Source: a virus (Duplodnaviria > Caudoviricetes). Taken from it: a stretch of DNA of 64,000 nucleotides. The position numbers were made by a program, and so were the translations under genes. How positions within the stretch are numbered: position 1 is the stretch's first letter; every line of letters begins with the position of its first letter. A model generated the notes under the pieces. It searched no databases. It saw only the letters and a list, made by a program, of their open reading frames with translations, and had not been told where the DNA came from. The stretch is from positions 136,310-200,309 of IMG/VR virus record IMGVR_UViG_3300033273_000282; one strand, 5' to 3'. This document shows positions 18,801-32,469 of this stretch, in pieces.

Positions 18801-20799
18801 TGCTCCCGATCCTAACGATCCTCGTCGTGGCACTCTGCCTGGTCCAGATGCCGACTACCTCGATGGTAAGCAAGGTCTCTGGTATCAAGGTGGTTACAAC
18901 ATCAATGACCAGCGTGTTGCTGGTGTCATCGGTGACACTGCTCTGCCCGAGCTGCTGGGTCGTAATAAGTATTTCGCTGACAACCTGTATCTGGTTGCTT
19001 CAAGTGAGACTTACGAACTGTATGTTCCCGACTTCTTCTGTGCTACTGGTACTGCTCCTGTTGGTAACTTGGCTAACAATGGAGTTTATACACTCTACTC
19101 CGATGAAGCCGCTGTCAATAACATCGGTACAATCACCATTCTTGCTAACGGTATTTCCGAAGTTAACGACACCACTACTGGTTCCATCTACACAACGATT
19201 AGAGGTACAATCAGTTTCGTTGGTAACTACACCAACAAAGATATCAAGGTCTTTGGTCCTAACCCTGGTACTAAGTGGACTGTTACTTCTTCCAACCTGC
19301 TGACCACTGGCGCAAGTCAAGTGTTCGCTATGAGCAACACCGCTAACGGTGCTCTGCTTGAAATTGGTAGAACTAACATCGTTGCTACCCCAACCATTGA
19401 CTTTAGATCTGGTGCTCTGGCTTCTGACTATGATGTAAGATTTGAAGTTAGCGGTGGCACCGCACAGAACGGTGAAGGTGTTATCGAACTGAAGACCAGT
19501 TCCTTCACCCTGAACGGCAACACTGTATGGCACTCTGGTAATGACGGTGTTTCCTCTCAGTTGGACGCACACTATGTTGATGGTTACATCCAGAGCTCTT
19601 CTAACACAAACAATGCTCTTGTAAGAAGAACATCAAGCGGCGACATTAACATCTCTGACGTATACGCTGATCAAGGTATCTTCGCCAACACTGGTGAATC
19701 CATCCTTCAACTTGCTGATAGCAACGGTATCAACCTCGGTAAGGCAGGCACTAACGTTCTGTCCCTCAGAGGTAGACAGAATACCAATACTGGTTACATT
19801 GAGTTTGGTAATGATTCCAAGAAACTTGGTTGGAACGGTACTCACCTGTCCTACGGTACAATCTACTTCCGTAACAACAGAATCGGTATTGGCAATGATA
19901 ACCCACAATATGATCTTCACGCCGCAGGTGATATCGTCACTGGTAGCACAAGCAGATCCGCTAATACAGTTGTTCGTGCTCTCTCGGGAGACAGCAACCA
20001 AGCAGGCTTTGAAGCGTACGGTAACAGCCAAGGTACTGGTTACCTGTACATAGGTCAGTCTACTTCTTATGGTGGTGGTATTGCCTATAACGGCGACAAC
20101 TCCCCCGCAGCGTTCGGTTCTGAACAGGGTGACGATATCACCTTCTACAGAAGAAACAACGGCACTGACACCCGTGTCATGAAGTACCGTTATAATGATT
20201 CTACCGTTCACTTCTTCGGTCAGATTCGCTCTCGCGTTGCTACTGGTACCGCTCCCGTCGATGTAGACTCCACTACAGTATGTAATAACCTGAACGCTGA
20301 CCTGCTCGATGGATACCAGGCAAACAACCTGCCTTACCTGTCCAGAGCAGTCAACACCTGGATTACTGATGCGAACGGTCAGCAGAGATTCTACTTCTCT
20401 AACAACTCTCATACATACTTCAGAACTGGTAATGACTTCTTCTTCAGAAATGATTCTGATCAGACATTCTTGTCGATGGATGAGGGTGGTAGAGTTCACT
20501 TCCACGAGCCAGGTAGCAACAGCATTCAGAGCAGCTACAGACTCCAAGTTACTGGAGATAGTGGTCTTAACATTAACGCTTCTGAAAGTCTCTCTAGTGG
20601 TCAGAAGTCTACTGTTCTCAGAGCAACTGGAGACAAGCAGTATCTTGACTCCTATGGTATAATCAAGAGAAACCGTCAGAACATTAGCGAGTCTATCACC
20701 ATCAACAACGGTGATTCTTGTGGATCCTTTGGTCCTATCACTATAAATAATAATGTGACCATTCAAGTCGCCCCAGGCGGTGCCTGGGTAATTCTCTAA
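9898..20799 (+). CDS. giant tail fibre / virion structural protein
   Basis: 3633 aa; split beta-helix, four CIDD helical domains, four L(N/D)ADxLDG-like fibre motifs; C-terminal GPITINNNVTIQVAPGGAWVIL typical of cyanophage fibre ends. Confidence 0.8.
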   Translation: MSLSLNSSQQRLEGSGLVPQGPWTSATYGRANGIVTVTSVAHRLNDEERIYIKFGEDQLLRTIPAGQHEINVVDDDTFTITGTGQNFIEAATACSYRLVRSFVLNATDSMAFTVGTGANEDDAVFINKGPTGNIRVGINNTNPEFDLDVEGQIRTTRSIISDTAQIRNLDVTNEFVTKGLDLRGPNLINFEETDPTASDFGTIYYPTADNPPRQTQNNRIATTKFVYDVATADNGGRVYVSSVPGIGDDENDGRSAAKPVRTIKKAAQIAYSLQQDTEVPEYVSIIVSGGDYVEDNPISLPYNCSLIGDNLRRVILRPLNQDRHMIKASNETYAAGVVFRDHLDNTGTPDWTWKYAYVFDDKQRLYYEPEIAPFSFSPGLENQGRNLFAITFENHTGDNTTLLVGYAVEGGSSSSRGIIESVVFTGPNASPYSSGTIQVLMSDDQSTFLLAEKLYYADIYANIVKTGASPSDSLDVADRESQRPETEVIKHQRYQHVISSETETLRFDGTDLNNVIDTTDNRITIPLHRLYTGAKVIYKVQNEDGAPVEGLTDNTTYFVRVINDNTIELYDTWLDATSLQTTTGIRNLSDEGSGDEHTLFTCRVSVNDDTIYFPNHGLFTGNGIYYRASKAGGIGGLNDNSLIFVYRVDSHHFKLANTQADATNKNISGEDAPVILPLTSEGIGYQRFEKAINVVDISSVTTDVATQQAYNGIIYEVTAASRVIEGINFVGHDYEVGQEVQIYGLPYTALSFGSGASATYTQTANLITVTVSNTDPTVMNVLWPNLKTLGPVGGKGVGVRMVFDDAGNTGHINKSFHIATYQDGTLAQTQSDFNAYLGSPSNLGAGVARYNSSTNEVYFLLRAVDSATRSGTVTVFDNLGDFNGRKYVTHRIERADGYSVKFVTRGSCSRIATALDPSGDQQVCSATNYALMSLRNSPYAFDKVEFGANVQESAKQRDAAETINNNLSFIAEESYAYVKSQYNAGTNTSFSRTGTYTCSGNVMTVTCPRGSAVFAKNSYAFNFSGATTDGAYIVDDCEDHRRFTIILPAASTDSGTVTITIPAPWQTPNSVPPVDRAADGTSLILANKQLIAQEAVARMLIANPTFNIPTGNQACIDDAVDFLEAMAYNLAYGGNDQVYDAAKYYVDGAHVVGEEDESVEVFNNARDIAIQVMRNQTVTIQGSHGLTQIKDFTISPDSANSGVGDRFSDARNLIYKNKEFIAEIAVGRLNANLGYEVVDSRHMDAHDLLIANLDFIAEEAYAVQLAADPNLTTPTGDPQDCIDDVRDILTAVAFNVQHGSNNQVWDAANLYVGTPHIQGEEANSIAIINHARDIAKLVITNRTHTKVGSHEYTQSFDTTITHDQSASGGAYSSADCANVQSTIDSLMLIVTDAITNQTLNGVTKTTPATFSVPTGNQSCIDDIINILEVASWNLAMGGNDFTYDAANLYITGNHVVGEENHSIYAFRQARDIAIECFQNEDVTTGGYTQRTQFKDLTITQDTGLPICANVIASLTALMNVVEVAIDTQSLSSFTRTDSYANRCSDTAAAITSLTGVVTGAIGSTGNPGSLSGVVRTYPVSDQQCIDDVYHVLRAWMYDMRYGGNSKTIEAAQKYIQGTNVNYVTNEVPQTREVYTRAEQLATLAIRNQLPQGEFSQIAPFHNASTTVDSNQPECGASITFLNGLATILDDALSTAGTSLSNVTLTEPSTLLKDDSGLKIVPMLADNLDLPVIEASPYIQNASLISFLGASGAEIDGAKVASPNVPRPGVFLDGNGVERSTFPPQGKSMVANAFTIISVNGGVGYNILNDGYTQLVSVFVIFGGDGVIVQSGGYASLTNSASNFGTRALKATGYRSEAYEFDVGTVTQIRNQTDNNGAQTGRQIIEVGGPITNFPVEDYIIKFEGFRNSDPAKEYFVLGTEQLSGSIGTQITANVTTNDGLGLDLIRESDSTNVSFQNGNLDLLNNAVIKFHRPSICNSSSHTWEYVGAGDTYNALPQNGGVGIPANEAVEEAYGQVYTSGTNEFGDFKVGDFVTIFNRTGSISFVGTVSISELSSIKIVGGSITITGFSDSDELGGAFASDSLLPTQAAVKDYITNKLGPYLNQPYSTNAVPSALVQLTTSGKINIEQIPALRPFNITSVASTAERLAIEDASAGDIAIETTSTSYQVAPSSVDIVNEVITIPSHGLTTGDILTYFQGTSNIGNLADGANYYVIQHAIGANTTDYIKLATSLADAQAGTARNLTSQGTGTHVFRTEGAAISYILENDLDTMYAAFVPNSAYVFSNNSLIIGSQSTAQVIVTNYEGGVVRDILIDDPGSGYATAPGISISAPPSGTQATASCTITNGQVASITITNPGSGYYTAPTVSFTGAPTGGTTATAQGNAARIEARLYVDLANNIKISDIDFILDEANVTVASGVYTHDTFDITITETNHGFSQGDTVYLEFTSGSSTSGFYSVDSIVNANEYTVVAQTALLTSGNYNRKRIVDITRVVNTSASNAQNWTQLSSTNIDASNIVAGVIDPQRLADTGVANSFTFLRGDASFQYAVQSIKFTTDDVLVGESSIQDNSYIEKVNIVNPGSGYTVGTYQNIPMVGGNVQISEQGVARATYTVADVVTGGIVDSVSNLSFTPGSYTPSSTFDVSVSTTDGAGLGAQIRFVTDVNGDIAVDIILDGGSGYNGGDTLEFDGPLFGGTVQQGVSVTVSTLTSSTTLGAITSVSVVTPGTGYTSDFTLTVPSELGQPVQAGSLTAVKGTLSRYYGNASFDLLKANNLTPTTLQAGGSVFGNYGIAKFRKPAAEQALANQDLGGFVITTAGEVTIDQGPGSKLNADKLDGNEGSFYQNATNLIEGILDPQRLANTTYNISISGTADYANTLFCETTAPSSANASLVSAANVGTQLALRSNSVTGIPTDAGGTRAGIMTFRRSATGNSVAQLAFSATDNLYLRGNSDTGTVYGQWAKIWSSENDGAPDPNDPRRGTLPGPDADYLDGKQGLWYQGGYNINDQRVAGVIGDTALPELLGRNKYFADNLYLVASSETYELYVPDFFCATGTAPVGNLANNGVYTLYSDEAAVNNIGTITILANGISEVNDTTTGSIYTTIRGTISFVGNYTNKDIKVFGPNPGTKWTVTSSNLLTTGASQVFAMSNTANGALLEIGRTNIVATPTIDFRSGALASDYDVRFEVSGGTAQNGEGVIELKTSSFTLNGNTVWHSGNDGVSSQLDAHYVDGYIQSSSNTNNALVRRTSSGDINISDVYADQGIFANTGESILQLADSNGINLGKAGTNVLSLRGRQNTNTGYIEFGNDSKKLGWNGTHLSYGTIYFRNNRIGIGNDNPQYDLHAAGDIVTGSTSRSANTVVRALSGDSNQAGFEAYGNSQGTGYLYIGQSTSYGGGIAYNGDNSPAAFGSEQGDDITFYRRNNGTDTRVMKYRYNDSTVHFFGQIRSRVATGTAPVDVDSTTVCNNLNADLLDGYQANNLPYLSRAVNTWITDANGQQRFYFSNNSHTYFRTGNDFFFRNDSDQTFLSMDEGGRVHFHEPGSNSIQSSYRLQVTGDSGLNINASESLSSGQKSTVLRATGDKQYLDSYGIIKRNRQNISESITINNGDSCGSFGPITINNNVTIQVAPGGAWVIL
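20742..20749 (+). promoter_or_regulatory. T4-type late promoter inside the 3' end of the giant fibre gene
   Basis: Exact TATAAATA about 60 bp upstream of the 20808 start. Confidence 0.6.
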
Positions 20800-20807
20800 G
20801 TAAATCT

Positions 20808-21560
20808 ATGAGTAGGTTATACGTAAATAATATCCGCGCTTACAGCGGATCAACTATTTCCATTCCTGCCACTACTGCCCTCTCTCTTGGTGGAGCCAAG
20901 ATTGACGAGAACTCTGTTCTGCCCAGTGCTTCTGGGCAGGCTAACCGAGCAGTTGGTAGTGATGGTGAGCAAGTTGTATATGACACTTACGGTGCTCAGT
21001 CGATCCAAGTGTTCCAAAGTTCTGGAACATACACTAAATCGGCTGGCGTCAATACCGTTCTTGTCAGGCTTGTAGGTGGCGGTGGTGGTGGTTCAGGTCA
21101 TGCTGAATCTGGTGGTGCTGGTGGATACGCTGAAAGAGTTTGCGATGTATCTGGAGTAAATACAGTATCCGTTGTCGTTGGACAGGGTGGTGCTGGTACT
21201 TACTACTCTGGTAGATCGAGCCAAGGTGGTTCTACTTCATTTGGTTCTTTCTGTTCTGCTACTGGTGGCGATGGCGCTAACCAGTCTTTCCAACATGCTG
21301 GTGGACTGGGGGGAATCGGTGCTGGTGGAGATGTTAATATGTACGGCGGCGGTGGATCTGCCCACGGTAGATATAACGGAGCAGGTGGATATTCCTTCTT
21401 CGGTGGTTGCGCTGCTAGAGGACACCCCCGTGGTGGCGACTATTCAAGAAACCACCAATCAAGATGTGCTCCTGGATCGGGTGGCGCTAACGGCTGGTTT
21501 CGATCCTACCTCGGACCAGATGGTAAACACGGTATGGTAGTAATCTGGGAATTTAAGTAA
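20808..21560 (+). CDS. glycine-rich adhesin-like protein 1
   Basis: 250 aa; QVFQSSGTY...LVGGGGGGSG...GGAGGY and further Gly-rich motifs; paralogous to the next two genes. Confidence 0.75.
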   Translation: MSRLYVNNIRAYSGSTISIPATTALSLGGAKIDENSVLPSASGQANRAVGSDGEQVVYDTYGAQSIQVFQSSGTYTKSAGVNTVLVRLVGGGGGGSGHAESGGAGGYAERVCDVSGVNTVSVVVGQGGAGTYYSGRSSQGGSTSFGSFCSATGGDGANQSFQHAGGLGGIGAGGDVNMYGGGGSAHGRYNGAGGYSFFGGCAARGHPRGGDYSRNHQSRCAPGSGGANGWFRSYLGPDGKHGMVVIWEFK

Positions 21561-21563
21561 ACA

Positions 21564-22325
21564 ATGTCTATTCTTAAGGTCAATGAATTGAGAGCCCAGT
21601 CGGGCAGTAACGTAACCATTCAAAGTGGTTATAGTCTTCGCCTGGGAACTAAGACACTGGATGCTTCTAGTGTTATGCCCTCGCCCTCTGGTCAGAATGG
21701 TAAAATTCTTACCAGTAATGGATCTACTAGATCATGGACTGAACATGGTGCCGTATCGATGCAGGTATGGACTTCCAATGGAACTTGGAGCAGACCATCT
21801 GGGGTAAAGAGAATTCTTGTTAGAATCTCTGGTGCTGGCGGTGCTGGCTCGGGTGTTGGTGAAGCAGGTGGTGCTGGTGGATACGCTGAAGAAATTATCG
21901 ACGTTACTGGTATCTCTTCTGTTTCTATTACTGTAGGTCAGCCTGGTTCCTGGGGTGGTACTTACTACTCAGGTGGTGCTGCTAATGGCGGTACTACTTC
22001 TTTCGGTAACTATCTCTCTGCCTCTGGTGGTAACGGTGCTAACCGTAATTACCAGCACTGTGGAGGACTTCCTGGCGTAGGCTCAGGTGGTCAACTTAAC
22101 ATCTACGGTGGCGGTGGATCTGGTCACGAGTATTGGTCTGGTTATCCTGGTGGCGGTTCCTTCTGGGGTGGCGCAGGTGCGACTGGTCACCCTCGCGGTG
22201 GTCACTATGCTTACACCCACCAATATAGAGCCGCTCCTGGTAGCGGTGGTTCTCCTGGGTATCACACTTCTCGTCGTGGTGCTAGGGGTATGGCTGGAAT
22301 CGTAGTAGTTTGGAACTTCGCATAA
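21564..22325 (+). CDS. glycine-rich adhesin-like protein 2
   Basis: 253 aa; same motif order as ORF 20808. Confidence 0.75.
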   Translation: MSILKVNELRAQSGSNVTIQSGYSLRLGTKTLDASSVMPSPSGQNGKILTSNGSTRSWTEHGAVSMQVWTSNGTWSRPSGVKRILVRISGAGGAGSGVGEAGGAGGYAEEIIDVTGISSVSITVGQPGSWGGTYYSGGAANGGTTSFGNYLSASGGNGANRNYQHCGGLPGVGSGGQLNIYGGGGSGHEYWSGYPGGGSFWGGAGATGHPRGGHYAYTHQYRAAPGSGGSPGYHTSRRGARGMAGIVVVWNFA

Positions 22326-22328
22326 ACA

Positions 22329-23084
22329 ATGTCTAATATCCGTATCAATGAACTCGACGCTGCGTCGGGAACTACTATTCTTATCCCCGATGGATACAAT
22401 CTATCCCTCGGCGGCACTACGCTGAACAAGAACTCGATTCCCCCACCACCAGCGGGGAACGCTGGTAAGTTTCTTGTTAGTGATGGAACTTCTGCGTCGT
22501 ATAAAAACATCGGTCCCGCTAGTATTCAGACTTTCTATAGCAGTTCTACTTGGACTAGACCTCCTGGGATTAACCGTGTTCTGGTCCGTGTAGTCGGCGG
22601 CGGCGGCGGTGGATCTGGACACTCAGAATCAGGCGGAGCAGGTGGCTATTCTGAAGAGGTAATCGATGTCCGTGGAATCTCGTCTGTTACTATTACTGTG
22701 GGCAATGGCTCTACGGGCGGCACTTATTATTCTGGTAATGGCGGAGGCGGTCAGACATCCTCATTCGGAAACTACCTTTCTGCGTCGGGTGGTCTCGGTG
22801 CTAACCAGTCTTACCAACATTGCGGTGGTCTTGGTGGTTTGGGCTCTGGTGGCAATTTGAATATCTACGGTGGCGGTGGTATCGGACACATGAACTACAT
22901 GGGTCATGGTGGCGGATCATTCTTTGGTTGTGGCACCATGAGCGCTCATGGTAATTGGGTACAAGGTACCCGTTCTAACCAACTTCGTGCTGCTTATGGT
23001 GCTGGTGGAACGTCTGGTTATCAGCGTTCTTATCAAGGTGCCAATGGCATGCAGGGGTGCGTTATTGTAATGGAGTTTATTTAA
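22329..23084 (+). CDS. glycine-rich adhesin-like protein 3
   Basis: 251 aa; same motif order as ORF 20808. Confidence 0.75.
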   Translation: MSNIRINELDAASGTTILIPDGYNLSLGGTTLNKNSIPPPPAGNAGKFLVSDGTSASYKNIGPASIQTFYSSSTWTRPPGINRVLVRVVGGGGGGSGHSESGGAGGYSEEVIDVRGISSVTITVGNGSTGGTYYSGNGGGGQTSSFGNYLSASGGLGANQSYQHCGGLGGLGSGGNLNIYGGGGIGHMNYMGHGGGSFFGCGTMSAHGNWVQGTRSNQLRAAYGAGGTSGYQRSYQGANGMQGCVIVMEFI

Positions 23085-23086
23085 TT

Positions 23087-23093
23087 CTAAATA
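23087..23093 (+). promoter_or_regulatory. late promoter variant (CTAAATA)
   Basis: CTAAATA in the short intergenic gap before ORF 23117; the same variant precedes g20 and the ORF after g23. Confidence 0.55.
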
Positions 23094-23116
23094 GTTACCA
23101 AGGAATCTAGAGTAAA

Positions 23117-23632
23117 ATGGCTAAAAGTTGTCTTGTAGATTACAGAGGATTTATCACCGACATCAGAGAATGCGGTGATGAATTTGAAGTATACCAAGGT
23201 CCCGATTCTCATATCCGCTGGGTCATTTGTGATGATGACAACGTGGATAATACTTGGGTCCTTTATAACGGGGAGTTTTTCCCTGGAGATCTTCGCCTGG
23301 AACGTAACCAGGATATGAAGCGTAAGGTTGCTTACGGATCGATCGAAGAGCAGTTGGACATGATGTACTGGGATCAGGTCAACGGAACGACCACCTGGAG
23401 AGATCATATTGGCTCGATCAAATCAGCGGAACCCACTCAGTCCGTTGCTGACGCTGATCCTACCTTCTACGCTGATAAGCGAGAGTTTGAGATGGGTACT
23501 GAGGATGCTCCTGCCTGGGAAACTCTTCCCGCAGTAAAGCGTCAGAAGATCACCACCTTCAAGAATGGGACAGTTTATGAAGAGGGCTGGGGTCCTGACC
23601 CTGTGACTGGCAAACCTGTTAGACTGGCTTGA
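23117..23632 (+). CDS. tail-fibre-associated (assembly/chaperone-like) protein
   Basis: 171 aa; RKVAYGSIEEQLDMMYWDQVNGTTTWRDHI motif commonly seen in ORFs next to phage fibre genes. Confidence 0.55.
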   Translation: MAKSCLVDYRGFITDIRECGDEFEVYQGPDSHIRWVICDDDNVDNTWVLYNGEFFPGDLRLERNQDMKRKVAYGSIEEQLDMMYWDQVNGTTTWRDHIGSIKSAEPTQSVADADPTFYADKREFEMGTEDAPAWETLPAVKRQKITTFKNGTVYEEGWGPDPVTGKPVRLA

Positions 23633-23649
23633 GGATATCCATCTAGATT

Positions 23650-25218
23650 ATGATTGATAAAATTTGTATTGTTGGCGGCGGCACCGCTGGATGGATTGCC
23701 GCTGCTTCTTTGATTAGATTTTTTCCTAAAAAAGAAATTACTCTGATCGAATCAGAAGAGATCCCCACCATTGGTGTGGGTGAATCTACCACCCAGTTCT
23801 TTAGAGACTGGACTCGGGAGATGTGTATCTCTGATGTCTGGATGGATGAGTGTGAAGCCACCTATAAGTACAGCGTGAAGTTTAGAAACTTCAGCGAGTA
23901 CGGTGATTTCCATTACCCATTTTTTCCTGGTAAAGAGCCACCTAACGCAAAGCTGGGACTTCTGGATTGGTTCCTTCATTACCGTGCTACTAACGGTAAT
24001 CCAGAAAAGTCCTTCTGTGAGTGGATGGTTCCTTATTGGAAAGTCATCGAAGATAATAAGGTTGTTCCTCGGGACGTTGATTACTTCAGCTACTTGGACA
24101 ATGCTGGGTATCATATGGATGCTCAGAAGTTTGCTGAGTATCTCCGTCGGGAGTTCTGTGTTCCTCGTGGCGTCAAGCACGTTAAGGGTACAGTAACTGA
24201 GATTGATCACGATGAGACTGGTATCAAACGTCTATATGTTGGCGATGTGTTCTACACTGCCGACCTCTTTATTGACTGTACTGGATTTAAGTCTCTGCTT
24301 CTGGGTGAAACTCTGGGTACCGAATGGGATGAGTTCCCCTTCCTGATCAATGATCGTGCCTGGGCAGTTCGCCTGAAGTATAAGGACAAGAAGACAGAGA
24401 TGCTCAACCATACTCTGTGTACCGCACTGGGTAATGGCTGGGTTTGGCATGTCCCCCTCAGCACTCGCTACGGCACTGGATATAACTTCAGCAGTAAGTT
24501 CATCTCTGATGAGGATGCTCTGGAGGAGTTCAAGTCGCACCTGGGCGAAGAATTTGAGGATCGTCAAATCAGTGACTTCCGTTTGATCAAGTGGAAGAAC
24601 GGTATCTCTAAGAAGATCTGGAATAAGAACGTCGTTGGTATTGGACTCTCTGCTGGCTTCATTGAACCCCTGGAATCCAATGGACTCATGAGTGCTCATA
24701 ACTTTGCCATGTATCTGTGTGATGCTCTGACAGCACATAATGGTAAGGTGAACACATTGATCAAGGATCAGTTCAACCGTCGCTGTCGTCAGAACTTCCA
24801 GAACTTTGCTTACTTTGTGGGCAACCACTTCATGTTATCCACCAGGGATGATACACCCTACTGGAAGTACATCACTCAGGATATTGATTATCTCAGTGCT
24901 CACGTTCAAGATGAGTATCGAGTGTATCCTCAGAACCAGATCTTCCTGGACATGCATGACATGAGCATCTGGAATATGAGTAACCTTGAAGGTAACGCAT
25001 ATCTTGCTGCTGGATTCAACCAGCATCCAGTTACTGAATGGCACGCTGACTACATGGAGAGGCGGCATAGCCTTGACTTAAGTCAGTGGAGGACGCTAGA
25101 ATCTGGGTACGAACTCCACCCCGATGCGGTGAGGGAGATCGATGAATTTCCAACACCAGCAGAGTTCTACTATGAGGACGTTGCTGGTATAGACATGCCC
25201 TACTACATTCATGGCTAA
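23650..25218 (+). CDS. flavin-dependent halogenase, tryptophan-halogenase (PrnA/VirX1-like) family, copy 1
   Basis: GGGTAG FAD motif, IGVGEST, ATYK (catalytic Lys position), FIDCTGF, GWVWHVP (WxWxIP variant), FIEPLESNG. Confidence 0.9.
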   Translation: MIDKICIVGGGTAGWIAAASLIRFFPKKEITLIESEEIPTIGVGESTTQFFRDWTREMCISDVWMDECEATYKYSVKFRNFSEYGDFHYPFFPGKEPPNAKLGLLDWFLHYRATNGNPEKSFCEWMVPYWKVIEDNKVVPRDVDYFSYLDNAGYHMDAQKFAEYLRREFCVPRGVKHVKGTVTEIDHDETGIKRLYVGDVFYTADLFIDCTGFKSLLLGETLGTEWDEFPFLINDRAWAVRLKYKDKKTEMLNHTLCTALGNGWVWHVPLSTRYGTGYNFSSKFISDEDALEEFKSHLGEEFEDRQISDFRLIKWKNGISKKIWNKNVVGIGLSAGFIEPLESNGLMSAHNFAMYLCDALTAHNGKVNTLIKDQFNRRCRQNFQNFAYFVGNHFMLSTRDDTPYWKYITQDIDYLSAHVQDEYRVYPQNQIFLDMHDMSIWNMSNLEGNAYLAAGFNQHPVTEWHADYMERRHSLDLSQWRTLESGYELHPDAVREIDEFPTPAEFYYEDVAGIDMPYYIHG

Positions 25219-26776
25219 AAGTATTTGTATTATTGGCGGTGGCAGTTCAGGATGGATGACTGCTGCCGCTTTTGCTGTCCGTTTTCCAGATTGGGATATC
25301 ACTCTAGTTGAAAGTGAGTGGTCTAAGGCTATTGGTGTAGGCGAATCCACCCTAGGGCATTTTAATCGGTACCTGGATTGTTTGGGTATTGAGGATAAAG
25401 ACTGGATGCCTGCGTGTAGCGCAACCTATAAAGTATCGATCCAGTTTACCAACTGGAAGAACGAAGGTGATGTCTTCCAATATCCTTTCGGGGACTTTGA
25501 CTTTTCCCGTGGAGGATTCCTAGATTGGTATCATCTTCACAACTTCTTTCCAGAAAAGTTCCCTGATACATCGTTTGCTGAGTTCTACAATCCGATCTCC
25601 TTCTTGGCTTCTGCCAATAAGATGTGTGATACGGATCAATATATTCCAAACTTTAGCAGACGCTGGAACGCCGCCTACCACTTTGACGCTGACAAGTTCG
25701 GGCAGTGGTTGCGGGAGAACCTCTGTAAGGATGTAACCCATCACAGAGGTGACATCTGTGGAGCCGTACATAAACACACGGGTGATATTGCTTACCTGCT
25801 CGATGAAGAGGGGCACCAATATCATGCTGATTATTTTATCGACTGTACTGGATTTAAGTCAGCAATCCTAGAAGGATTCATGGGAGTTCCCTTTATCTCC
25901 TTTGAGAATGATCTCCCTAATGATTCGGCAGTAGCAGCACGTATCCCCTACACTAATCGTAGGGAACAGATGAGAAATACTACCGATGGGTATGCTCTGG
26001 ATAATGGCTGGGTGTGGACTATTCCCACTTGGGATCGCATTGGTACTGGTTATGTGTACTCATCTAAGTTCTGCTCACAGGAGCAGGCAGAGAAAGAGTT
26101 CCGTGAGCATGTTAAGTGGGACGGAGAAGTTAAGCACATTAAGTTCCGTCATGGTAAGCACAAGTATGGATGGTCTAAGAATGTCATTGGTATTGGACTA
26201 TCTTATGGTTTCCTAGAGCCACTAGAATCCACAGGTCTCTTTACTACACATGAAAATATCCTAAGACTGATTGACACCTTTGAAAGAAGGAACGGCAAGA
26301 TCACTCAACTGGATATTGACGGATTTAATCACGCTGTATCATACGAACTTGAAGCAATGAAAGAGTTTGTGTACATGCATTATTATCTGTCACCTAGAGA
26401 TGACACTCCTTACTGGAGGTATTACACTGAGCGCAGTCCACTGACATATGAGGAAATGTATGATAAAGTGGTAAGGTCACCTAGACTGTACCAGGAGTTC
26501 ATACATAACTTCAATATCGCTAATGCTCCCAAAGACCTTGGAGGATTGGTCTATATCGCTGCTGGTCTTGGATACCATCCATTGACTATGACGGATAGTC
26601 TTCATACGAGAAATCGTAAAGAGTATCCTCAAGAGGAAATGGAAACCACTGTTACACAGTTTGAGAAATATAAGACCAGTCTAGAAAGGCACGTTGCTAA
26701 ACTCCCAAGTCACTATGATTACCTTGTTGAAAACATTTATGGGGTTGATAAAGAAACCCAAAAAACCTCGTGCTAG
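25211..26776 (+). CDS. flavin-dependent halogenase, tryptophan-halogenase family, copy 2
   Basis: GGGSSG, IGVGEST, ATYK, FIDCTGF, GWVWTIP, FLEPLESTG; overlaps copy 1 by 8 nt. Confidence 0.9.
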   Translation: MAKSICIIGGGSSGWMTAAAFAVRFPDWDITLVESEWSKAIGVGESTLGHFNRYLDCLGIEDKDWMPACSATYKVSIQFTNWKNEGDVFQYPFGDFDFSRGGFLDWYHLHNFFPEKFPDTSFAEFYNPISFLASANKMCDTDQYIPNFSRRWNAAYHFDADKFGQWLRENLCKDVTHHRGDICGAVHKHTGDIAYLLDEEGHQYHADYFIDCTGFKSAILEGFMGVPFISFENDLPNDSAVAARIPYTNRREQMRNTTDGYALDNGWVWTIPTWDRIGTGYVYSSKFCSQEQAEKEFREHVKWDGEVKHIKFRHGKHKYGWSKNVIGIGLSYGFLEPLESTGLFTTHENILRLIDTFERRNGKITQLDIDGFNHAVSYELEAMKEFVYMHYYLSPRDDTPYWRYYTERSPLTYEEMYDKVVRSPRLYQEFIHNFNIANAPKDLGGLVYIAAGLGYHPLTMTDSLHTRNRKEYPQEEMETTVTQFEKYKTSLERHVAKLPSHYDYLVENIYGVDKETQKTSC

Positions 26777-27545
26777 ATTCTTTAGCCTGATTCCTGGGGC
26801 GCATACTTTGTACCCTGTGGTTCGATCTGAAGAACTCGATCGGGATTGGATTAAGCAAGAGAAAGAAGACTATAGGGAACGGCAAACTAAGTGCCCTATG
26901 GCTAATATCATAAACGCGATTCCTTTTAACCAACCCCATAGTATTGGTAAGTGTCCAGCGATTAACTCTGTGATGCGAACTGGGTATGTTGTTCGTGCTC
27001 CAGCTGACTTTAAGGTCCATACTAATGGAGATGGACATACCATCCTCTTTACCACAACTGCTTTCAGTCCTCCTGGATCTGACTATGTGGTCCTTCACGA
27101 TAGTGATACGGCTAAGTGGTTGATGGATTCAACTAAGGATAATGTTATCGATCAGGTTATCAAAGTCAATACGTGTTGGAGAGTACAAGCAGATGATGAT
27201 ATTGTGTTCCTCCAGACTAAGGTTCCTTTTGTAAATGAATCTCGTTTCAGCGCTATTACTGGTATCCTTGATCCACGATCGGCTTATGAAATCAATGTTC
27301 AACTCTGGTGGCATGTGAAGGAAGGGGATGAAACTATCAAAGCAGGAACTCCCCTAGCATGTTATGTCCCTATCTCTCGCAAGCTTCTAGAAGATCTGAA
27401 TGTGGATATCGACATAGCCACTCCAGAAGATTATGTTCTAGAGAACGAGTTTCAATATACAGCCTATAATGAATTTCCTGACACGGTGAATGTTACCAGG
27501 CGTCAGTTAAAAACAAACAAGATCCTTCGCAAGTATTGGAAATGA
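26739..27545 (+). CDS. conserved hypothetical protein (CPAI...GYVVRAPAD family, possible beta-clip fold)
   Basis: The ORF track starts at 26694; the in-frame ATG at 26739 (MGLIKKP) reduces the overlap with the halogenase. C-terminal IKAGTPLA resembles a dUTPase-like beta-clip motif. Confidence 0.6.
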   Translation: MGLIKKPKKPRARFFSLIPGAHTLYPVVRSEELDRDWIKQEKEDYRERQTKCPMANIINAIPFNQPHSIGKCPAINSVMRTGYVVRAPADFKVHTNGDGHTILFTTTAFSPPGSDYVVLHDSDTAKWLMDSTKDNVIDQVIKVNTCWRVQADDDIVFLQTKVPFVNESRFSAITGILDPRSAYEINVQLWWHVKEGDETIKAGTPLACYVPISRKLLEDLNVDIDIATPEDYVLENEFQYTAYNEFPDTVNVTRRQLKTNKILRKYWK

Positions 27546-27922
27546 ACATCCCCACATTTAATACACCTGAACACCAAGAAGAGTTTGAACTCGTCTTTGC
27601 TGAAAAAGCAGTAGAGTATGTCAAACTCATGAATGTTGTGAGAGAACTGATGTATGGTACTGGTAATGGTAACTATGCTAATCTCCCTGGATCATGCCTA
27701 GAAATAGTCAATGACATCACACGTTCTCTACTCTATGATTGTGAAACTCAATTCAAAGAGTATCACCCAGAGTATAAGACTGATGAAGATGAGATCTTCA
27801 TTCCACGTAAGTCATTCAAAGAAAATGTAACTGAAGCACTGCTAGAAGCAAACCAGAAGTTCTGGAATAGTGGTGATGAACCTACCGAACTACAGTGCGT
27901 TGATCATCTTACTGACGAGTAA
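27542..27922 (+). CDS. acidic hypothetical protein
   Basis: ATGA overlap with the upstream stop; 126 aa, Glu-rich. Confidence 0.65.
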   Translation: MNIPTFNTPEHQEEFELVFAEKAVEYVKLMNVVRELMYGTGNGNYANLPGSCLEIVNDITRSLLYDCETQFKEYHPEYKTDEDEIFIPRKSFKENVTEALLEANQKFWNSGDEPTELQCVDHLTDE

Positions 27923-28527
27923 TGACTATCCATCCTTTGTTCTCGGTTCCAGTATTCAAGGGGCATCTTTGCCCCACCGAATATCAAGAAGCCGAGTTTG
28001 ATGATATCCTCAACAGGATGTTTTTGGATTGTAAGTTGGGTGACTTTACTGGGGAGACTGGGTTGTCTACCGCACCCAACGGTATGAACCTTCATAAGAT
28101 CTCAGAGTTGAAATGGTTCTGGGAGAGAATTGATTATGCTGTGCGAGACTACTGGGTAAACATCCTTGGATATAGGAGGATGTCTTACGTTGAGTGTCAG
28201 CACTCTTGGGCAAACAAACACTTTTCTAATGACAGCACCGCAGAGCACAGTCATAGAGATGGTTGGAATGGTAGATGTCAGGTCTCTGGCGTATACTACT
28301 TTAAGAAGCCAAAAGGATCTTCTAACATCCACTTCTGTAATCCAAACGATTATATTTTAAGGATGACTCCATACGAGCACATGACAGGCATAGATACTAT
28401 ATCTACTGAAGTGACAGCAGAGCAGTACGATTTTATTCTCTTCCCCTCCTGGGTTAGACATAGAGTCCCACCAAGCAATGCTTCTCAGAGGATCGCTATA
28501 TCATTTAATTACCTTGGTTATGATTGA
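27922..28527 (+). CDS. Fe(II)/2OG oxygenase (TIGR02466-like)
   Basis: SWAN...EHSH...SGVYY...LFPSWVRHRV...RIAISFN: HxH...H triad plus the 2OG-binding Arg. Confidence 0.8.
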   Translation: MTIHPLFSVPVFKGHLCPTEYQEAEFDDILNRMFLDCKLGDFTGETGLSTAPNGMNLHKISELKWFWERIDYAVRDYWVNILGYRRMSYVECQHSWANKHFSNDSTAEHSHRDGWNGRCQVSGVYYFKKPKGSSNIHFCNPNDYILRMTPYEHMTGIDTISTEVTAEQYDFILFPSWVRHRVPPSNASQRIAISFNYLGYD

Positions 28528-29302
28528 AGACTTTAAGATTCTTCCAGTCCCTAAACACTTAGCACTCTTTGTCAAGCCATTTGATGAGTGGAACTGGACT
28601 TATCACGGGTACTACTGGCGTATCCGTGATATGTTCTATGAACTAGATAAGTTTATTGAAGTCCTTAAGTGCTATCCCATTGAGGATATGAACAATGCTG
28701 ATAGTGCGGACGATCCGAACCCTTTCGCGCAAACGTCGATACCTTATTGGATATTTGCCCCCATAGCGGAGCAGATCAGAAACTTCATCATTGTCAATCA
28801 CTTCAAGCAAGAAGTATCTTTCTCGCTACACGATGAGCGTCTCTCTGAGTGGGGTAACGTATACTCTAAGAAACACTCTAGACCTGTTGGGTGTTGGCAA
28901 ATGCCCCATCGAGATTTTGGTACCGATGAAGGATTCATTGGCAACCTCTGGCTTTCTCACCACGAACCAAATGAAACAGGAACCGCGTTCTTTGACTATA
29001 AAGGAACGATTGATGAGGGACGGTACGATTTCCAAATCGATCCAAATCACCACAGGTATAAAGAGTGGCATAATTGGCACGGAAGCGGAGCCGATCACGA
29101 CGACCGATGGATCAACTTCGACTCAAATAAGCAACGGCATTGGGGTTTCATTAAGAGAGGTTTCGCAGCAGCTGAATATGGAACTATGACACTTTACGAT
29201 GCGAACGCTATCCACTCACCGTACATCCCTGATAGTGTAGAATGGCGTTGGAGCCATTGCTTCGGATTCAAGTATACTCCTTTACGAAATGTTCTTAGAT
29301 GA
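28520..29302 (+). CDS. putative Fe(II)/2OG oxygenase
   Basis: PHRD...NLWLS...GTAFF...LYDANAIHSP...WR: HxD...H pattern; start refined from 28478 to the ATG at 28520. Confidence 0.65.
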   Translation: MIEDFKILPVPKHLALFVKPFDEWNWTYHGYYWRIRDMFYELDKFIEVLKCYPIEDMNNADSADDPNPFAQTSIPYWIFAPIAEQIRNFIIVNHFKQEVSFSLHDERLSEWGNVYSKKHSRPVGCWQMPHRDFGTDEGFIGNLWLSHHEPNETGTAFFDYKGTIDEGRYDFQIDPNHHRYKEWHNWHGSGADHDDRWINFDSNKQRHWGFIKRGFAAAEYGTMTLYDANAIHSPYIPDSVEWRWSHCFGFKYTPLRNVLR

Positions 29303-29852
29303 AATCTTCCCTACCCCAATATGGGGAGCGGATCTCAATCTTGATGTGGATAGCATCATGTATTGGGCATACCGCCAGAAAGAAGAAGATGAAGGTAGGA
29401 TCATATCTAATGTTGGTGGGTGGCAATCAAATGATTACAGAAATTTTTCTGGAACTCCACTCCTCCCCCTGACGGAGGCAATTTCTAAGCTTGCTATTCA
29501 AGCCAGCGAAGACCTGGGTATACCAGAACCTGCTGATGCTATTGTTAACTTGTGGGTTAACATCAATCCTAGACTTTCATATAATCAAGTTCATGTACAC
29601 CCTGAGTGTAAACTGTCTGGTGTCTTCTATGTGAAAGCAGAGAAGGATTGTGGTAATCTTTGTTTTACTAGAGGATCTAATGACTTTGCTCTAGGAACGG
29701 TTGCTCCGAATCAAACTAGATATAGTAGTGCTGAATATGAGTACACGCCTAAACCAAATCGCTTGATTATTTTCCCAGCGTGGGTGATGCATCATGTGAA
29801 AGCTAATCTATCCTATTCTGATAGGATATCTTTGTCATTTAATTTACGATGA
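29289..29852 (+). CDS. Fe(II)/2OG oxygenase (TIGR02466-like)
   Basis: WVNIN...HVH...LSGVFYV...FPAWVMHHV...RISLSFN. Confidence 0.85.
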   Translation: MFLDEIFPTPIWGADLNLDVDSIMYWAYRQKEEDEGRIISNVGGWQSNDYRNFSGTPLLPLTEAISKLAIQASEDLGIPEPADAIVNLWVNINPRLSYNQVHVHPECKLSGVFYVKAEKDCGNLCFTRGSNDFALGTVAPNQTRYSSAEYEYTPKPNRLIIFPAWVMHHVKANLSYSDRISLSFNLR

Positions 29853-30463
29853 AAGAGTTTAAGAATTTTCTACCAGTATCTCAAGCACTTGAGATTCATG
29901 ACATCCTTACTTCTAGTATCTTCCCATGGTACTGGCTTGATGATGTAACTGTTTCTCCTGAGGAGAGAGATGAGGTTCCAGCATATTACAGGTCTCAACC
30001 TGGAATGCATCATACTCCTTTTGTTGATGGTCGCGCTAGTGAGTGGTACGATAAGTTTAGTTTCATCTATCACTACATTCTGGATGCGATGGAACTGGAT
30101 TATAAGGAATGGCAACTGGCTCGGATTCGATGTGGATTAAACTTCCCCACCTTTAGGGATGAGCACATGCTCCACAACCAGCCACACATTGATTACCCAG
30201 AGACTCAAGTGGGGGATCACTTCACCTGTCTGTATTATGTGAATGATTCGGACGGTCCTACAGTTGTGTTCAACGAAACCGAAGAGTCTGATAAGTACAC
30301 AATTAAGTATCAGTGTCATCCAGAAAAGAATAAACTCTTTGTCTTTAATGGTAAGCACTATCACGCATCCTCATGTCCCAAGCATCATGATGCTAGAATG
30401 GCATTGACAATTAACCTTTGTAGCAGAACTCGAAATGTGGAACAGTTTCTTCGCGGCGTCTAA
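29849..30463 (+). CDS. Fe(II)/2OG oxygenase
   Basis: PHID...YYVNDSDGPT...FNGKHYHASSCP...RMALTIN. Confidence 0.8.
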   Translation: MKEFKNFLPVSQALEIHDILTSSIFPWYWLDDVTVSPEERDEVPAYYRSQPGMHHTPFVDGRASEWYDKFSFIYHYILDAMELDYKEWQLARIRCGLNFPTFRDEHMLHNQPHIDYPETQVGDHFTCLYYVNDSDGPTVVFNETEESDKYTIKYQCHPEKNKLFVFNGKHYHASSCPKHHDARMALTINLCSRTRNVEQFLRGV

Positions 30464-31118
30464 TTTATTAGGCAAAGATCAAGCGGCTTACGTTCCAGAT
30501 TTTCTCAAGTCTCCTGAGAAGTATTGTTCTTGGGAGACTGTAGAGGATGCCTTACATAGATCCGATATGTATTGGGAACTCATCAATCCCAATGGGGGCA
30601 AAGATGATGTCGGTGAGTATAAACCAGCATGGGCTAGAACACCAGACCAAGACAAAAGGCACATTCATGATCACATCATGAGTGGTAAAAGTTTTGTTAT
30701 CTTGTCTTATAGTAGAGCGAACGCTAGAGTTAGATCTCTATGTGCTGAGATAGAAAGGCACTTCAATGTGAATACTGACATCCATGTATATGGAGCGAGA
30801 GATTCTGCTAATTCTTTCAAGTGTCATTATGATCACTTTGCCAATTTCATCATCCAATGCGAGGGTGAAACTGATTGGGTAGTCTATAAGAACAGGGCTA
30901 CCTCTCTATGGGAAGCAAAGAATGATAAACCTGTAGATGAATCAAATTATGAAGTTGACTGGAAGGGGGTTCTCAAACCTGGAGATATGCTGTATATTCC
31001 AGATAGGGCGTGGCATAAAGCCACACCAACTTCCAGAAGACTGTCAATGAGCATCCCATGTATGCCCACTGTGATACCCTCTAATTTCTATGACCGAACT
31101 CATTATAAAATCACATAG
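30435..31118 (+). CDS. JmjC/cupin-4 (YcfD/ROXA-like) oxygenase
   Basis: SFKCHYDHFANFIIQCEGETDW...LKPGDMLYIPDRAWHKA: HxD...H JmjC signature. Confidence 0.8.
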   Translation: MWNSFFAASNLLGKDQAAYVPDFLKSPEKYCSWETVEDALHRSDMYWELINPNGGKDDVGEYKPAWARTPDQDKRHIHDHIMSGKSFVILSYSRANARVRSLCAEIERHFNVNTDIHVYGARDSANSFKCHYDHFANFIIQCEGETDWVVYKNRATSLWEAKNDKPVDESNYEVDWKGVLKPGDMLYIPDRAWHKATPTSRRLSMSIPCMPTVIPSNFYDRTHYKIT

Positions 31119-31722
31119 AAAACCATTTGTCAAACTGGTTAGGCAAATGGTATCTCCTAATGTTATTGATCTTCTTGCTACCGAGTTTAGGCTTATGCGA
31201 GATGCTCTAAAAGCAATGGGAAACAATGAGGGTTACAATGACCCTACTGTCCCAAACACATTTTCTTGGTACTCTCCCCTTTGTTTCGAGTCTCTAAGTT
31301 TGGTTCTCCAACCAAAAGTCGAGAGGATCTTAGAAGAGAAATTGTATCCGACCTATTCTTATGGTCGCATATATACTGAAGGTAGCGAGCTTGTTCGGCA
31401 CGTTGACCGAAGAAGTTCTGAAGTAGCAGTAAACGTCAACATCGCAAGGGATGAGGAGCACCTATCGTTCCTCTACTTTGAATGGGAAGGCAATCTAAGA
31501 AAGGTTGACCTTGAGCCAGGAGATGTGGTAATATATTCAGGATCACTCATTCCCCACTGGCGTGAGAAGTATACTGGTCGAGAGCAAATGAATGCTTTCA
31601 TGCAGTATGTCTTTGCTAATGGTCACTACAGTGATCTAAAGTATGATACCCGTCCCTATCTTGCTACTCCATATGAGCTGACAGAAGGACACATTAAAGA
31701 TGAAGTGAAAAACTATGTCTGA
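31090..31722 (+). CDS. putative Fe(II)/2OG oxygenase (prolyl-hydroxylase-like)
   Basis: PTYSYGRIY...LVRHVDR...EPGDVVIYSG...HWRE: HxD...H pattern. Confidence 0.7.
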   Translation: MTELIIKSHRKPFVKLVRQMVSPNVIDLLATEFRLMRDALKAMGNNEGYNDPTVPNTFSWYSPLCFESLSLVLQPKVERILEEKLYPTYSYGRIYTEGSELVRHVDRRSSEVAVNVNIARDEEHLSFLYFEWEGNLRKVDLEPGDVVIYSGSLIPHWREKYTGREQMNAFMQYVFANGHYSDLKYDTRPYLATPYELTEGHIKDEVKNYV

Positions 31723-31984
31723 AGAAACAACAACCGAAGGTCTCTTGGATTTTACGGAGGTGTGGGATGACTTTGTTGAGCAGCTTCTCGCTTGCCGTAA
31801 AGAGGTTAAAGAGCGTGAAGATGAACTCGAAAAAAATTCTGCTCTTCTAACTCGTGTAGACCTCAGCGAACTCAATGAAGTTCGTAACAAGTGCCTTAAG
31901 CTTGAAGGTGCTTGTGAAGCCCTTGACCTTGTACGCACCAGAGTTATGGGTGAAGAATCCAAAATCCAAAGGAGTGAAGCATGA
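31715..31984 (+). CDS. small coiled-coil protein A
   Basis: 89 aa, heptads, LKLEGACEAL motif; overlap-coupled to both neighbours. Confidence 0.65.
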   Translation: MSEETTTEGLLDFTEVWDDFVEQLLACRKEVKEREDELEKNSALLTRVDLSELNEVRNKCLKLEGACEALDLVRTRVMGEESKIQRSEA

Positions 31985-32184
31985 CTATTGAAGAAATGAT
32001 TAAAGATTTTGAAGAGCAGCGCGGTAAAATCCGTGGTGAAATCTCTGAGATCGAAGACGCACTGAAAGCCAGACAAGAACAACTCTTGCGTCTTGGTGGC
32101 GCAATCGAAGGTCTCCGTCTGGCTGAAAAGAATCTAGACGCCGCACCCGTTGCTACGGGTAACGTAGAGGTTGCCGCTGACTAA
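31981..32184 (+). CDS. small coiled-coil protein B
   Basis: 67 aa, LRLGGAIEGL motif similar to protein A. Confidence 0.65.
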   Translation: MTIEEMIKDFEEQRGKIRGEISEIEDALKARQEQLLRLGGAIEGLRLAEKNLDAAPVATGNVEVAAD

Positions 32185-32456
32185 AGCAGTGCCTTGCTGC
32201 TGAGCATATCATGCTTCTCATCGAATTCAAATCTTTGAGGAGCATGAGTCCTATCACCAGCAACGATTAGGTAATATCTTTTACCGTAAATATTTTTGGT
32301 AATACCGATGGATCTGATTTCTCTTCCATCATATTTACCACCAACTTCGTAGGGGACAGTCTCTGGAGTACCGTCAAACTGTGGTTTGATACGGGACCAA
32401 AGATGTTCCCTTTCTCTGTATTCGCCAGTAATTGGCTTTCTATCTCTTAACGACAT
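32181..32456 (-). CDS. hypothetical protein (only credible minus-strand gene)
   Basis: Fills the gap between 32184 and 32504; the start is likely MSLRDRK (32456) rather than 32510, which would overlap the next gene; stop overlaps the convergent stop of ORF 31981. Confidence 0.6.
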   Translation of the reverse strand: MSLRDRKPITGEYREREHLWSRIKPQFDGTPETVPYEVGGKYDGREIRSIGITKNIYGKRYYLIVAGDRTHAPQRFEFDEKHDMLSSKALL

Positions 32457-32461
32457 TAGGG

Positions 32462-32469
32462 TATAAATA
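32462..32469 (+). promoter_or_regulatory. T4-type late promoter
   Basis: Exact TATAAATA 35 bp before the S8 gene. Confidence 0.75.

Follow-up and report, generated by a model that had tools for sequence, protein, structure and literature searches.

The virus record IMGVR_UViG_3300033273_000282 of IMG/VR (200,309 bp, rated complete by CheckV) ends in a 64-kb stretch, hereafter the window, in which two flavin-dependent halogenases and six dioxygenases are encoded directly behind a cassette of tail-fibre genes. The main finding of the present analysis is that, in the sampled viral contigs, the halogenase clade that includes the cyanophage enzyme VirX1 is tied to one family of Gly-rich receptor-binding fibre proteins and to a probable fibre chaperone. 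Late-promoter motifs lie before the fibre-chaperone pair, not before the enzymes, and genes for a small-molecule scaffold are missing from the block. What viral halogenases do in nature can thus be tested directly in cultured phages such as Syn9, Syn10, S-RIM44 and P-TIM40. Tentatively, and as quite possible rather than probable, we favour the reading that side chains of the Gly-rich fibre proteins, expressed together with the enzymes, are modified by the halogenases and by some of the dioxygenases, a protein being the substrate that we infer. The broader proposal, in which the phage halogenates and hydroxylates its own receptor-binding tips during chaperone-assisted assembly and in which VirX1-type halogenases and part of the cyanophage 2-oxoglutarate (2OG) oxygenase arrays would have this as their natural role, is possible as well and is put forward with more reserve.

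The window encodes the neck proteins gp13 and gp14, a sheath stabiliser, the large terminase, the tail sheath, the portal and the major head protein, and nearly all of its genes lie on the plus strand; by this gene content and strand bias the virus, a marine cyanophage, is a T4-like cyanomyovirus. The closest cultured relatives, as judged by protein comparison, are Synechococcus and Prochlorococcus myoviruses. The block in question (20808-32184, all on the plus strand) comprises three Gly-rich paralogues, an open reading frame (ORF) of 171 amino acids (aa), two halogenases, a DUF6065 protein, six dioxygenases and three small ORFs. A preliminary description of the window had listed three Gly-rich genes, a fibre-associated ORF, two halogenases, six oxygenases and four accessory ORFs between 20742 and 32184, and both this content and this order were borne out by Pfam, PHROGs and motif analysis. 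At the DNA level, a single stretch of 333 bp is all of the 11.4-kb region that matches any deposited phage in megablast searches.

Fibre proteins, probable chaperone and halogenases

The block opens with three tandem genes, which code for Gly-rich fibre-tip proteins 1 (20808..21560, 250 aa), 2 (21564..22325, 253 aa) and 3 (22329..23084, 251 aa), all of them members of Gly_rich_2 (PF21722) and phrog_863. Proteins 1 and 3 match PF21722 with E-values of 1e-6 and 2e-7, respectively, and protein 1 is 52% identical to its paralogue 2. The AlphaFold2 model of protein 2 (predicted local distance difference test score 87) matched through its residues 62-253 the fibre protein gp24 of the freshwater cyanomyophage Pam3 (7YPX_A; Z 21.0, root-mean-square deviation 2.6 over 184 residues; Foldseek E 6e-8). 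This model also matched a tail-tip protein of mycobacteriophage Bxb1 (Z 14.4) and, at Z 8-10, the ALK/LTK glycine-rich domains. Fold comparison thus detected in protein 2 the tumour necrosis factor (TNF)-like as well as the Gly-rich distal domains of the Pam3 gp24 type, and the Gly-rich proteins, which the preliminary description had called adhesin-like, can be regarded with good confidence as fibre proteins by their predicted fold. At the sequence level, no PDB match was found for the family, Pam3 gp24 included. Residues 1-60 of the protein 2 model are predicted without any helix, that is, without the N-terminal docking bundle of the Pam3 type, so the attachment point probably differs from that of Pam3.

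Direct membership in the T-even adhesin family gp38, as known from phage S16, was considered and found no support, as no match to PF05268 was obtained and structure 6F45 stood outside the top 50 of both fold searches; the sole tie to gp38, an indirect one, is the likening of Pam3 gp24 to S16 gp38 by the authors of the Pam3 study (PMC9608196). An alignment of 43 sequences of the Gly-rich family, with identity down to 48%, revealed as invariant three His residues (in the contexts QH, GGGGxxH and GHP), one Tyr and two Glu, which could be either a metal site or targets of modification. Of all residues other than Gly in the C-terminal domain of these proteins, 18-22% are Tyr, Trp, His or Phe, in rough agreement with the “Tyr/Trp/His-rich loops” of the preliminary description.

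The 171-aa ORF (23117..23632, phrog_1787), which always follows the fibre genes and precedes the halogenase as a single copy, probably encodes a tail-fibre assembly chaperone of the Pam3 gp25/Mu Tfa type. In Pam3 the chaperone gp25, encoded next to gp24, is built of a five-strand beta-sandwich (residues 1-55) and a helical trimerisation domain (residues 64-162; Wei et al., 2022, PMC9608196); it shields the distal loops of gp24 and departs before maturation (PMC9608196). The model of the 171-aa protein has the same domain plan, with five strands in residues 1-56 followed by helices in residues 65-113. Two independent fold searches put gp25 (7ypx_a, Z 4.2 over 52 aa) and the chaperone of the Mu fibre (5YVQ_B) at the top of its PDB matches, each of them weak (Foldseek E 0.55), and its structural neighbours in the Atlas include the tail-fibre assembly families Caudo_TAP and Phage_tail_APC. 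Given the weak fold match, it is the architecture and the position of the gene that lead us to predict, with moderate confidence, a fibre chaperone.

Halogenases 1 (23650..25218, 522 aa) and 2 (25211..26776, 521 aa) match PF04820 with 309 bits (E 7e-92) and 350 bits (E 2e-104), respectively, the gathering cut-off being 21 bits. The former belongs to the Syn9 gp41 paralogue clade and is 46% identical to Syn9 gp41; the latter is an orthologue of VirX1 and Syn9 gp42 and aligns with VirX1 (PDB 6QGM) over residues 3-511 (E 7.5e-137, about 43% identity). The GxGxxG motif at residues 9-14 reads GGGTAG in halogenase 1 and GGGSSG in halogenase 2, and the WxWxIP motif reads WVWHVP (a Val variant) and WVWTIP. 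The catalytic Lys (K74, in ATYK) is invariant across 22 halogenases, as is the Glu of EPLES. Both proteins are motif-complete and are predicted to be flavin halogenases. A flavin reductase of the PF01613 family was found nowhere in the 200-kb genome; hence, under any reading, the halogenases would need a reductase of the host. In many related contigs (L033, L036, L041, L047, L051, L056, L071, L080) the dioxygenase array is closed by one or two extra halogenases on the opposite strand, which form separate deep clades, so that the array is bracketed by halogenases; the window is devoid of this second set.

The order of fibre, Gly-rich genes, 171-aa ORF, one or two halogenases, gp43-like gene and dioxygenases recurs in Syn9, where the Gly-rich proteins are gp38 and gp39, and in S-RIM44, Sf-FP1, S-CREM1, P-TIM40, P-RSM6, S-WAM1, S-SZBM1 and two metagenomic lineages. 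It is kept in two downstream contexts, being followed either by neck genes or by small ORFs and a helicase. A tblastn search with Gly-rich protein 3 returned only 20 phage records, all of which carry a halogenase. The viral contigs were searched by alignment-based methods, and a search of them with a single protein yielded close relatives only. For the view from the halogenase side, the 80 best viral contigs by halogenase profile were taken, of which 53 had enough upstream sequence, and clusters were formed at 70% identity; Gly-rich genes and the 171-aa ORF stood directly upstream on the same strand in 39 of the 53 contigs and in 26 of the 38 clusters. For the view from the fibre side, 78 contigs with a Gly-rich fibre gene were collected, 58 of them with at least 3 kb of downstream sequence, and in every one of the latter (58/58 contigs, 16/16 clusters) the 171-aa ORF and then a halogenase followed within 2.5 kb. 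Co-occurrence with fibre genes in related phages, set beforehand as a test of the preliminary interpretation, was thus seen from both sides. Downstream of the fibre-chaperone-halogenase junction the dioxygenase content varies freely between relatives.

A maximum-likelihood tree of 106 halogenases resolved two old paralogue clades. All 14 members of the clade of halogenase 1 and Syn9 gp41 come from loci with Gly-rich and chaperone-like genes, and 35 of the 37 members of the clade of halogenase 2 and Syn9 gp42, hence of VirX1, are fibre-linked (Shimodaira-Hasegawa-like approximate likelihood ratio test support 96). From this topology the linkage is ancient and mostly inherited; independent repeated gains, which were also considered, find no support in a tree that shows mainly old, inherited linkage. 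Phage Sf-CH11 (L015, PV340848.1, 102892-109054) possesses at the corresponding genomic site, before the neck genes, a variant cassette composed of a giant structural protein, a GspG-C protein, two 2OG oxygenases, a halogenase, two more 2OG oxygenases and a LamG-like jellyroll protein, and its genome contains no Gly-rich fibre gene. Nor was such a gene found in the genomes of S-MbCM6, P-SSM2 and S-SSM7, whose more distant halogenases sit among photosynthesis, nucleotide or sugar genes.

Late-promoter motifs and probable operon layout

An exact T4-type late-promoter motif, TATAAATA, on the plus strand at 20742..20749, falls within the 3' end of the preceding fibre ORF, 59-66 nt upstream of the first Gly-rich gene. 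A probable second late promoter, the one-mismatch variant TCTAAATA, lies on the same strand at 23086..23093, 31 nt before the ATG at 23117, and taken alone would be weak as a promoter. Of the two late promoters in the preliminary description, the one at 20742 was therefore recovered exactly; the one given as 23087 turned out to be this imperfect variant beginning at 23086. The perfect NATAAATA is found at the corresponding position before the 171-aa ORF in many relatives, and GATAAATA or TATAAATA occurs at -31 to -34 of the chaperone-like gene in Syn9, Sf-FP1, S-CREM1 and the related locus L021. The next late promoter on the plus strand, again TATAAATA (32462..32469), precedes by 35-42 nt the gene for a subtilase/Ig fibre-like protein of 1713 aa. 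The window contains TATAAATA five times against 1.7 expected, and ATAAATA eleven times, always on the plus strand, mostly 25-65 nt before a start codon and before sheath, neck-region, subtilase-fibre and other structural genes.

The comparative scan, in which ATAAATA was sought 10-90 nt upstream of genes in 81 related loci (background in random windows 1.4%), detected the motif before the first Gly-rich gene in 39 loci (48%) and before the chaperone-like gene in 41 loci (51%; median position -31), before the first halogenase in 14% of the loci, and before dioxygenase genes in 0-2% of them. This amounts to an approximately 35-fold enrichment of the late-promoter motif before the fibre and chaperone-like genes, and its near absence before the dioxygenases makes a late operon likely. 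A search for RNA sequencing runs that contain the sequence returned none. The claim that the enzyme block is joined to the fibre cassette therefore holds physically, by adjacency, and transcriptionally as far as promoter placement indicates.

All gene junctions from 25211 to 32184 overlap, by 1 to 83 nt as called, in line with the overlaps reported in the preliminary description, and this suggests translational coupling. The same description had found no terminator, and only late promoters feeding the block. In our count, sigma70-like sites number 25 against 26.3 expected and terminator-like hairpins 14 against 9.5 +/- 3.1 expected, both at the chance level of shuffled sequence. An 11/12 match of the sigma70 type at 29557 and a 12-bp hairpin at 28601 are both inside coding sequence. 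A drop of GC content across the dioxygenase array was rejected as a seam, because the GC content of third codon positions runs on without a break and Gly codons account for the higher GC of the fibre genes.

Possible modification of the fibre tips and rival explanations

If the Gly-rich fibre proteins are indeed the substrates, the process could be pictured as follows. The late promoter at 20742 would drive the three paralogous receptor-binding fibre proteins, and the second, weaker one at 23086 would drive one overlapping operon, which starts with the probable fibre chaperone, reads through the two halogenases, the DUF6065 protein, the six dioxygenases and two small helical proteins, and ends at the convergent gene at 32181. 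The enzymes would act on Tyr, Trp, His and Arg-type positions of the Gly-rich fibre proteins while the chaperone holds them and before the trimer matures (this access point is pure conjecture), with reduced flavin supplied by a host reductase, and would thereby give the receptor-binding tip a different chemistry. Several considerations lead us to favour such modification. The halogenase is obligately tied to the fibre-chaperone pair and shares a promoter with it; the active site of VirX1 is open, and the JmjC clade to which one of the dioxygenases belongs acts on proteins; Tyr, Trp, His and Phe are abundant at the non-Gly positions of the fibre domain, which also possesses invariant His, Tyr and Glu residues; and the block lacks a scaffold enzyme, a carrier, an exporter or an aromatic-bearing precursor, as neither a nonribosomal peptide synthetase, a polyketide synthase, an ATP-grasp enzyme, a transporter nor a precursor of that kind was found in 20808-32184 with Pfam and PHROGs.

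A number of facts weigh against fibre modification. We know of no flavin-dependent halogenase that acts on a folded structural protein, and the known peptide substrates of flavin halogenases are of the type of ribosomally synthesised and post-translationally modified peptides (RiPPs). The activity of VirX1, which halogenates many small aromatic molecules in vitro, has been shown on small molecules only. No fibre gene occurs within 10 kb in 12 of the 38 halogenase clusters, and in S-B64 the Gly-rich fibre gene and the halogenase are tens of kilobases apart. An inherited linkage could, moreover, persist as a stable operon without any shared function, and late timing and co-transcription are likely rather than certain, the timing being read from motif placement only. 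Four more 2OG-FeII_Oxy_5 (PF13759) genes occur in the same genome outside the window (at about 48.0, 84.0, 85.8 and 102.0 kb), so not all oxygenases of the phage are fibre-linked. Finally, related fibres exist in Pam3 and Bxb1, and fibre assembly in Pam3 is described with the chaperone alone (PMC9608196).

The last-mentioned oxygenase genes fit an explanation in which enzymes with other targets occupy a hyperplastic slot behind a strong late promoter and are merely co-inherited with the fibre cassette; such targets might be the 2OG/succinate balance, modification of nucleic acids or host proteins, or oxidative-stress chemistry. Cyanomyoviruses carry many scattered 2OG oxygenases, roles in 2OG/nitrogen signalling and DNA repair have been proposed in earlier papers, and the widely differing dioxygenase content of the array, the mainly vertical inheritance of the linkage in the halogenase tree and the separation of the two genes in S-B64 all agree with hitch-hiking of this kind. 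Still, the fibre/chaperone-like/halogenase junction persists in all 58 testable contigs while the downstream genes turn over, and it does so in two distinct genomic settings; a role for halogenases in 2OG balance is not obvious, and the gene overlaps suggest translational coupling. On balance we consider hitch-hiking unlikely. Slightly less likely still in our estimation is the synthesis of a secondary metabolite, in which a free amino acid or a small host molecule would be converted by successive halogenation and hydroxylation to a bioactive organohalogen and the adjacency to fibre genes would be incidental. Such synthesis was proposed for Syn9 by analogy with cephamycin and other multi-dioxygenase pathways, and bacterial homologues adjoin TonB receptors and SapC (PMC2938197); the broad action of VirX1 on small aromatics suits it, and so does the more distant halogenase of the S-SSM7 type, which is situated in a sugar/carbamoyltransferase cluster read as serving metabolite synthesis. 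Against it stand the obligate tie to one fibre family, the late-type promoters shared with the fibre chaperone, and the lack, in the block and its relatives, of a scaffold enzyme, a carrier protein, a precursor with a conserved aromatic residue or an exporter; in addition, a lytic phage would presumably gain little from an antibiotic made minutes before lysis.

A very improbable alternative is that the enzymes have the host receptor, or the precursor of it in the cytoplasm, as their late target, thus sparing progeny from loss on debris and already infected cells, and would therefore co-evolve with the receptor-binding protein. In other phages receptor-blocking genes, such as llp of T5, do lie beside receptor-binding genes, and the tight genetic tie of the enzymes to fibre genes together with the placement of late promoters is all that speaks for masking here. 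The enzymes showed no evident signal peptides or membrane segments, although no dedicated search was made; halogenases have no precedent in such a role, and the need for six different dioxygenases would be left unexplained.

Taken together, these considerations partly support the preliminary interpretation, according to which the enzymes form a late-expressed kit that tailors adhesins or fibres: the linkage and the probable late expression hold, and a protein substrate, as we infer it, is plausible. Should the fibres prove to be modified, a virion protein, or indeed any structural protein, would for the first time be known to be halogenated by enzymes, and phages would have a novel means to tune or diversify host recognition. 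Such chemistry would be new for virions and would bear on host range in the most abundant phototrophs of the sea. Unmodified fibres would give ground to the metabolite explanation.

Dioxygenases, neighbouring genes and known systems

The six dioxygenases are encoded between 27922 and 31722, and three of them (27922-28527, 29289-29852 and 30435-31118) reach Pfam thresholds. Two are 2OG-FeII_Oxy_5 (PF13759) enzymes, one of 201 aa (27922..28527, E 2e-14; H109-x-H111...H180...R190) and one of 187 aa (29289..29852, E 5e-22; H102-x-H104...H168...R179), the latter with PDB matches to 3BVC and 2RG4, both uncharacterised proteins. In both, HxH...H...R, conserved in at least 90% of relatives, replaces HxD/E...H, and a three-His iron site is possible. 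The third is a minimal JmjC dioxygenase of 227 aa (30435..31118, PF08007 (JmjC_2), E 5e-19, 68.6 bits against a cut-off of 22; H131-x-D133...H194), a counterpart of Syn9 gp49, with YxbC, NO66 and MINA53 as the nearest solved structures. The C-terminal dimerisation and winged-helix domains of the ROX enzymes are missing from it, since the protein is 227 aa long and its match ends at residue 208, as compared to ROX chains of 406-489 aa.

The remaining three bear misleading PHROG labels. The ORF of 274 aa (28478..29302, phrog_1644 and a weak DUF6445 match; H144-x-D146...H246...R257), counterpart of Syn9 gp46, is labelled “minor coat protein”; that of 204 aa (29849..30463, phrog_274; H113-x-D115...H172...R183 in 17 homologues), counterpart of Syn9 gp51/gp53, “DNA endonuclease V”; and that of 210 aa (31090..31722, phrog_2954; H104-x-D106...H156), counterpart of Syn9 gp54, “ferrochelatase”. 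Homologue alignments revealed the HxD...H triad, conserved across relatives, in each of them, with an Arg about 11 residues later in two, and the labels were rejected as wrong; this metal motif, which the JmjC protein shares, and the presence of their Syn9 counterparts inside a ten-dioxygenase array identify all three as dioxygenases.

Between the halogenases and the dioxygenases lies a gene of the gp43 family, coding for a DUF6065 protein (26694..27545, 283 aa as called, phrog_7084 E 6e-52), which has a conserved C87 and falls in Atlas clusters that bear the name Gp43 family, with PF19541. Its true start is probably 26715 or 26739, and it is likely to be the protein to which Iyer et al. ascribe a dUTPase fold and a conserved Cys. 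It is followed by a small ORF of 128 aa (27536..27922, phrog_10289), which is missing at the corresponding junction in the close relatives L006 and L007, has homologues elsewhere in the genomes of S-WAM1 and S-SZBM1, and, with 88% nucleotide identity to the Synechococcus phages S-M1 and QB2, accounts for the sole megablast match of the 11.4-kb region; it looks like a small mobile gene, recently inserted and outside the conserved set. The operon is terminated by genes for two small helical proteins of 89 aa (31715-31984, phrog_20247) and 67 aa (31981-32184, phrog_580), which are conserved in 102 and 74 related loci, respectively, and are therefore regular operon members. They look like mutual paralogues, with the common pattern F..Q...L.G/A..E.L; a role as RiPP-like precursors was rejected, as they have no conserved Trp, Tyr or His.

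The block is flanked on both sides by genes of fibre-like proteins. Upstream, a giant tail-fibre protein of 3633 aa (9898..20799, plus strand) matches phrog_5342 “tail fiber protein” with its first 800 aa (E 2e-122), and its C-terminal ~80 aa match the fibre genes of S-RIM44 and Sf-FP1 that occupy the equivalent position. Downstream, the subtilase/Ig fibre-like protein (32504-37645) combines a Peptidase_S8 domain (E 6e-25) with matches to fibre-like PHROGs and may be displayed on the virion. Its gene directly precedes gp13 and has its own TATAAATA; S-RIM44 and Sf-FP1 have no such gene at this place. A convergent gene of 109 aa (32181..32510, minus strand, phrog_26228, E 7e-23) bounds the 3' end of the operon, its stop overlapping that of the 67-aa ORF. 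One of the very few minus-strand genes of the window, it is squeezed in after the enzyme operon and before the late gene that follows; its 5' end overlaps the beginning of the subtilase gene, and it contains the late promoter at 32462.

Of the known systems, VirX1 of Syn10 (PDB 6QGM) is the closest to halogenase 2. It is a trimeric enzyme with the preference I > Br > Cl, its large and open active site has room for bulky substrates, and it serves as a biocatalyst. Halogenase 2 matches it over the full length and shares with it the GxGxxG motif, the catalytic Lys, the WxWxIP motif and the Glu, at an identity of only about 43%. In the accessible literature we found no report on the natural substrate or role of VirX1 or other viral halogenases, and our literature search returned no paper linking these enzymes to tail fibres. 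Reports of tryptophan-halogenase genes in cyanophages go back to 2005, and 2OG oxygenase arrays are just as well known there. For these enzymes, other papers proposed antibiotic protection, 2OG/nitrogen signalling or DNA repair roles, and a 2021 survey read a related cluster of jumbo cyanophages as serving metabolite synthesis or capsule decoration.

Enzymes acting on proteins provide further points of comparison. The JmjC protein of the window resembles the ROX enzymes (YcfD/RoxA, NO66, MINA53) in its JmjC_2 match and HxD...H triad and differs from them in its length of 227 aa, too short for the dimerisation and winged-helix domains, with E-values of only about 1e-7; characterised members of the MINA/NO66/YcfD clade hydroxylate His or Arg in ribosomal proteins. 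Flavin halogenases of the MibH type act on peptide Trp, and hydroxylases of mimiviruses and chloroviruses modify Gly-rich structural proteins of these viruses themselves. Unlike MibH or the viral collagen systems, the block has no leader peptide, RiPP machinery or collagen GXY repeats. The gp24/gp25 pair of Pam3 (PDB 7YPX/7YFW, PMC9608196) and the fibre cassette of the window are alike in having TNF-like plus Gly-rich domains and in the chaperone-like gene immediately downstream; in contrast to Pam3 with its single gene, the window has three tandem paralogues, and their N-terminal ~60 residues are predicted to be strand and coil and not a long helical docking bundle.

The enzyme cluster itself is already known from Syn9 (gp40-gp54), where Iyer, Abhiman, de Souza and Aravind (2010) described ten tandem dioxygenases of at least five families, together with two tryptophan halogenases and the dUTPase-fold protein with a conserved Cys (PMC2938197). 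They identified gp49 as a JmjC protein of the MINA/NO66 type, named gp52 and gp54 as 2OG-Fe(II) dioxygenases (2OGFeDOs), and proposed that the cluster makes halogenated, hydroxylated secondary metabolites; a tie to Gly-rich fibres, a chaperone or late promoters is not part of that description (PMC2938197). The window differs from Syn9 in having six dioxygenases instead of ten, and subtilase-fibre and neck genes downstream instead of small ORFs and a helicase. With the same families in the same order as in Syn9/Syn10, one JmjC protein of the MINA/NO66 type among them, and with 30-46% protein identity gene by gene, the locus analyzed here is a further member of the Syn9 neighbourhood.

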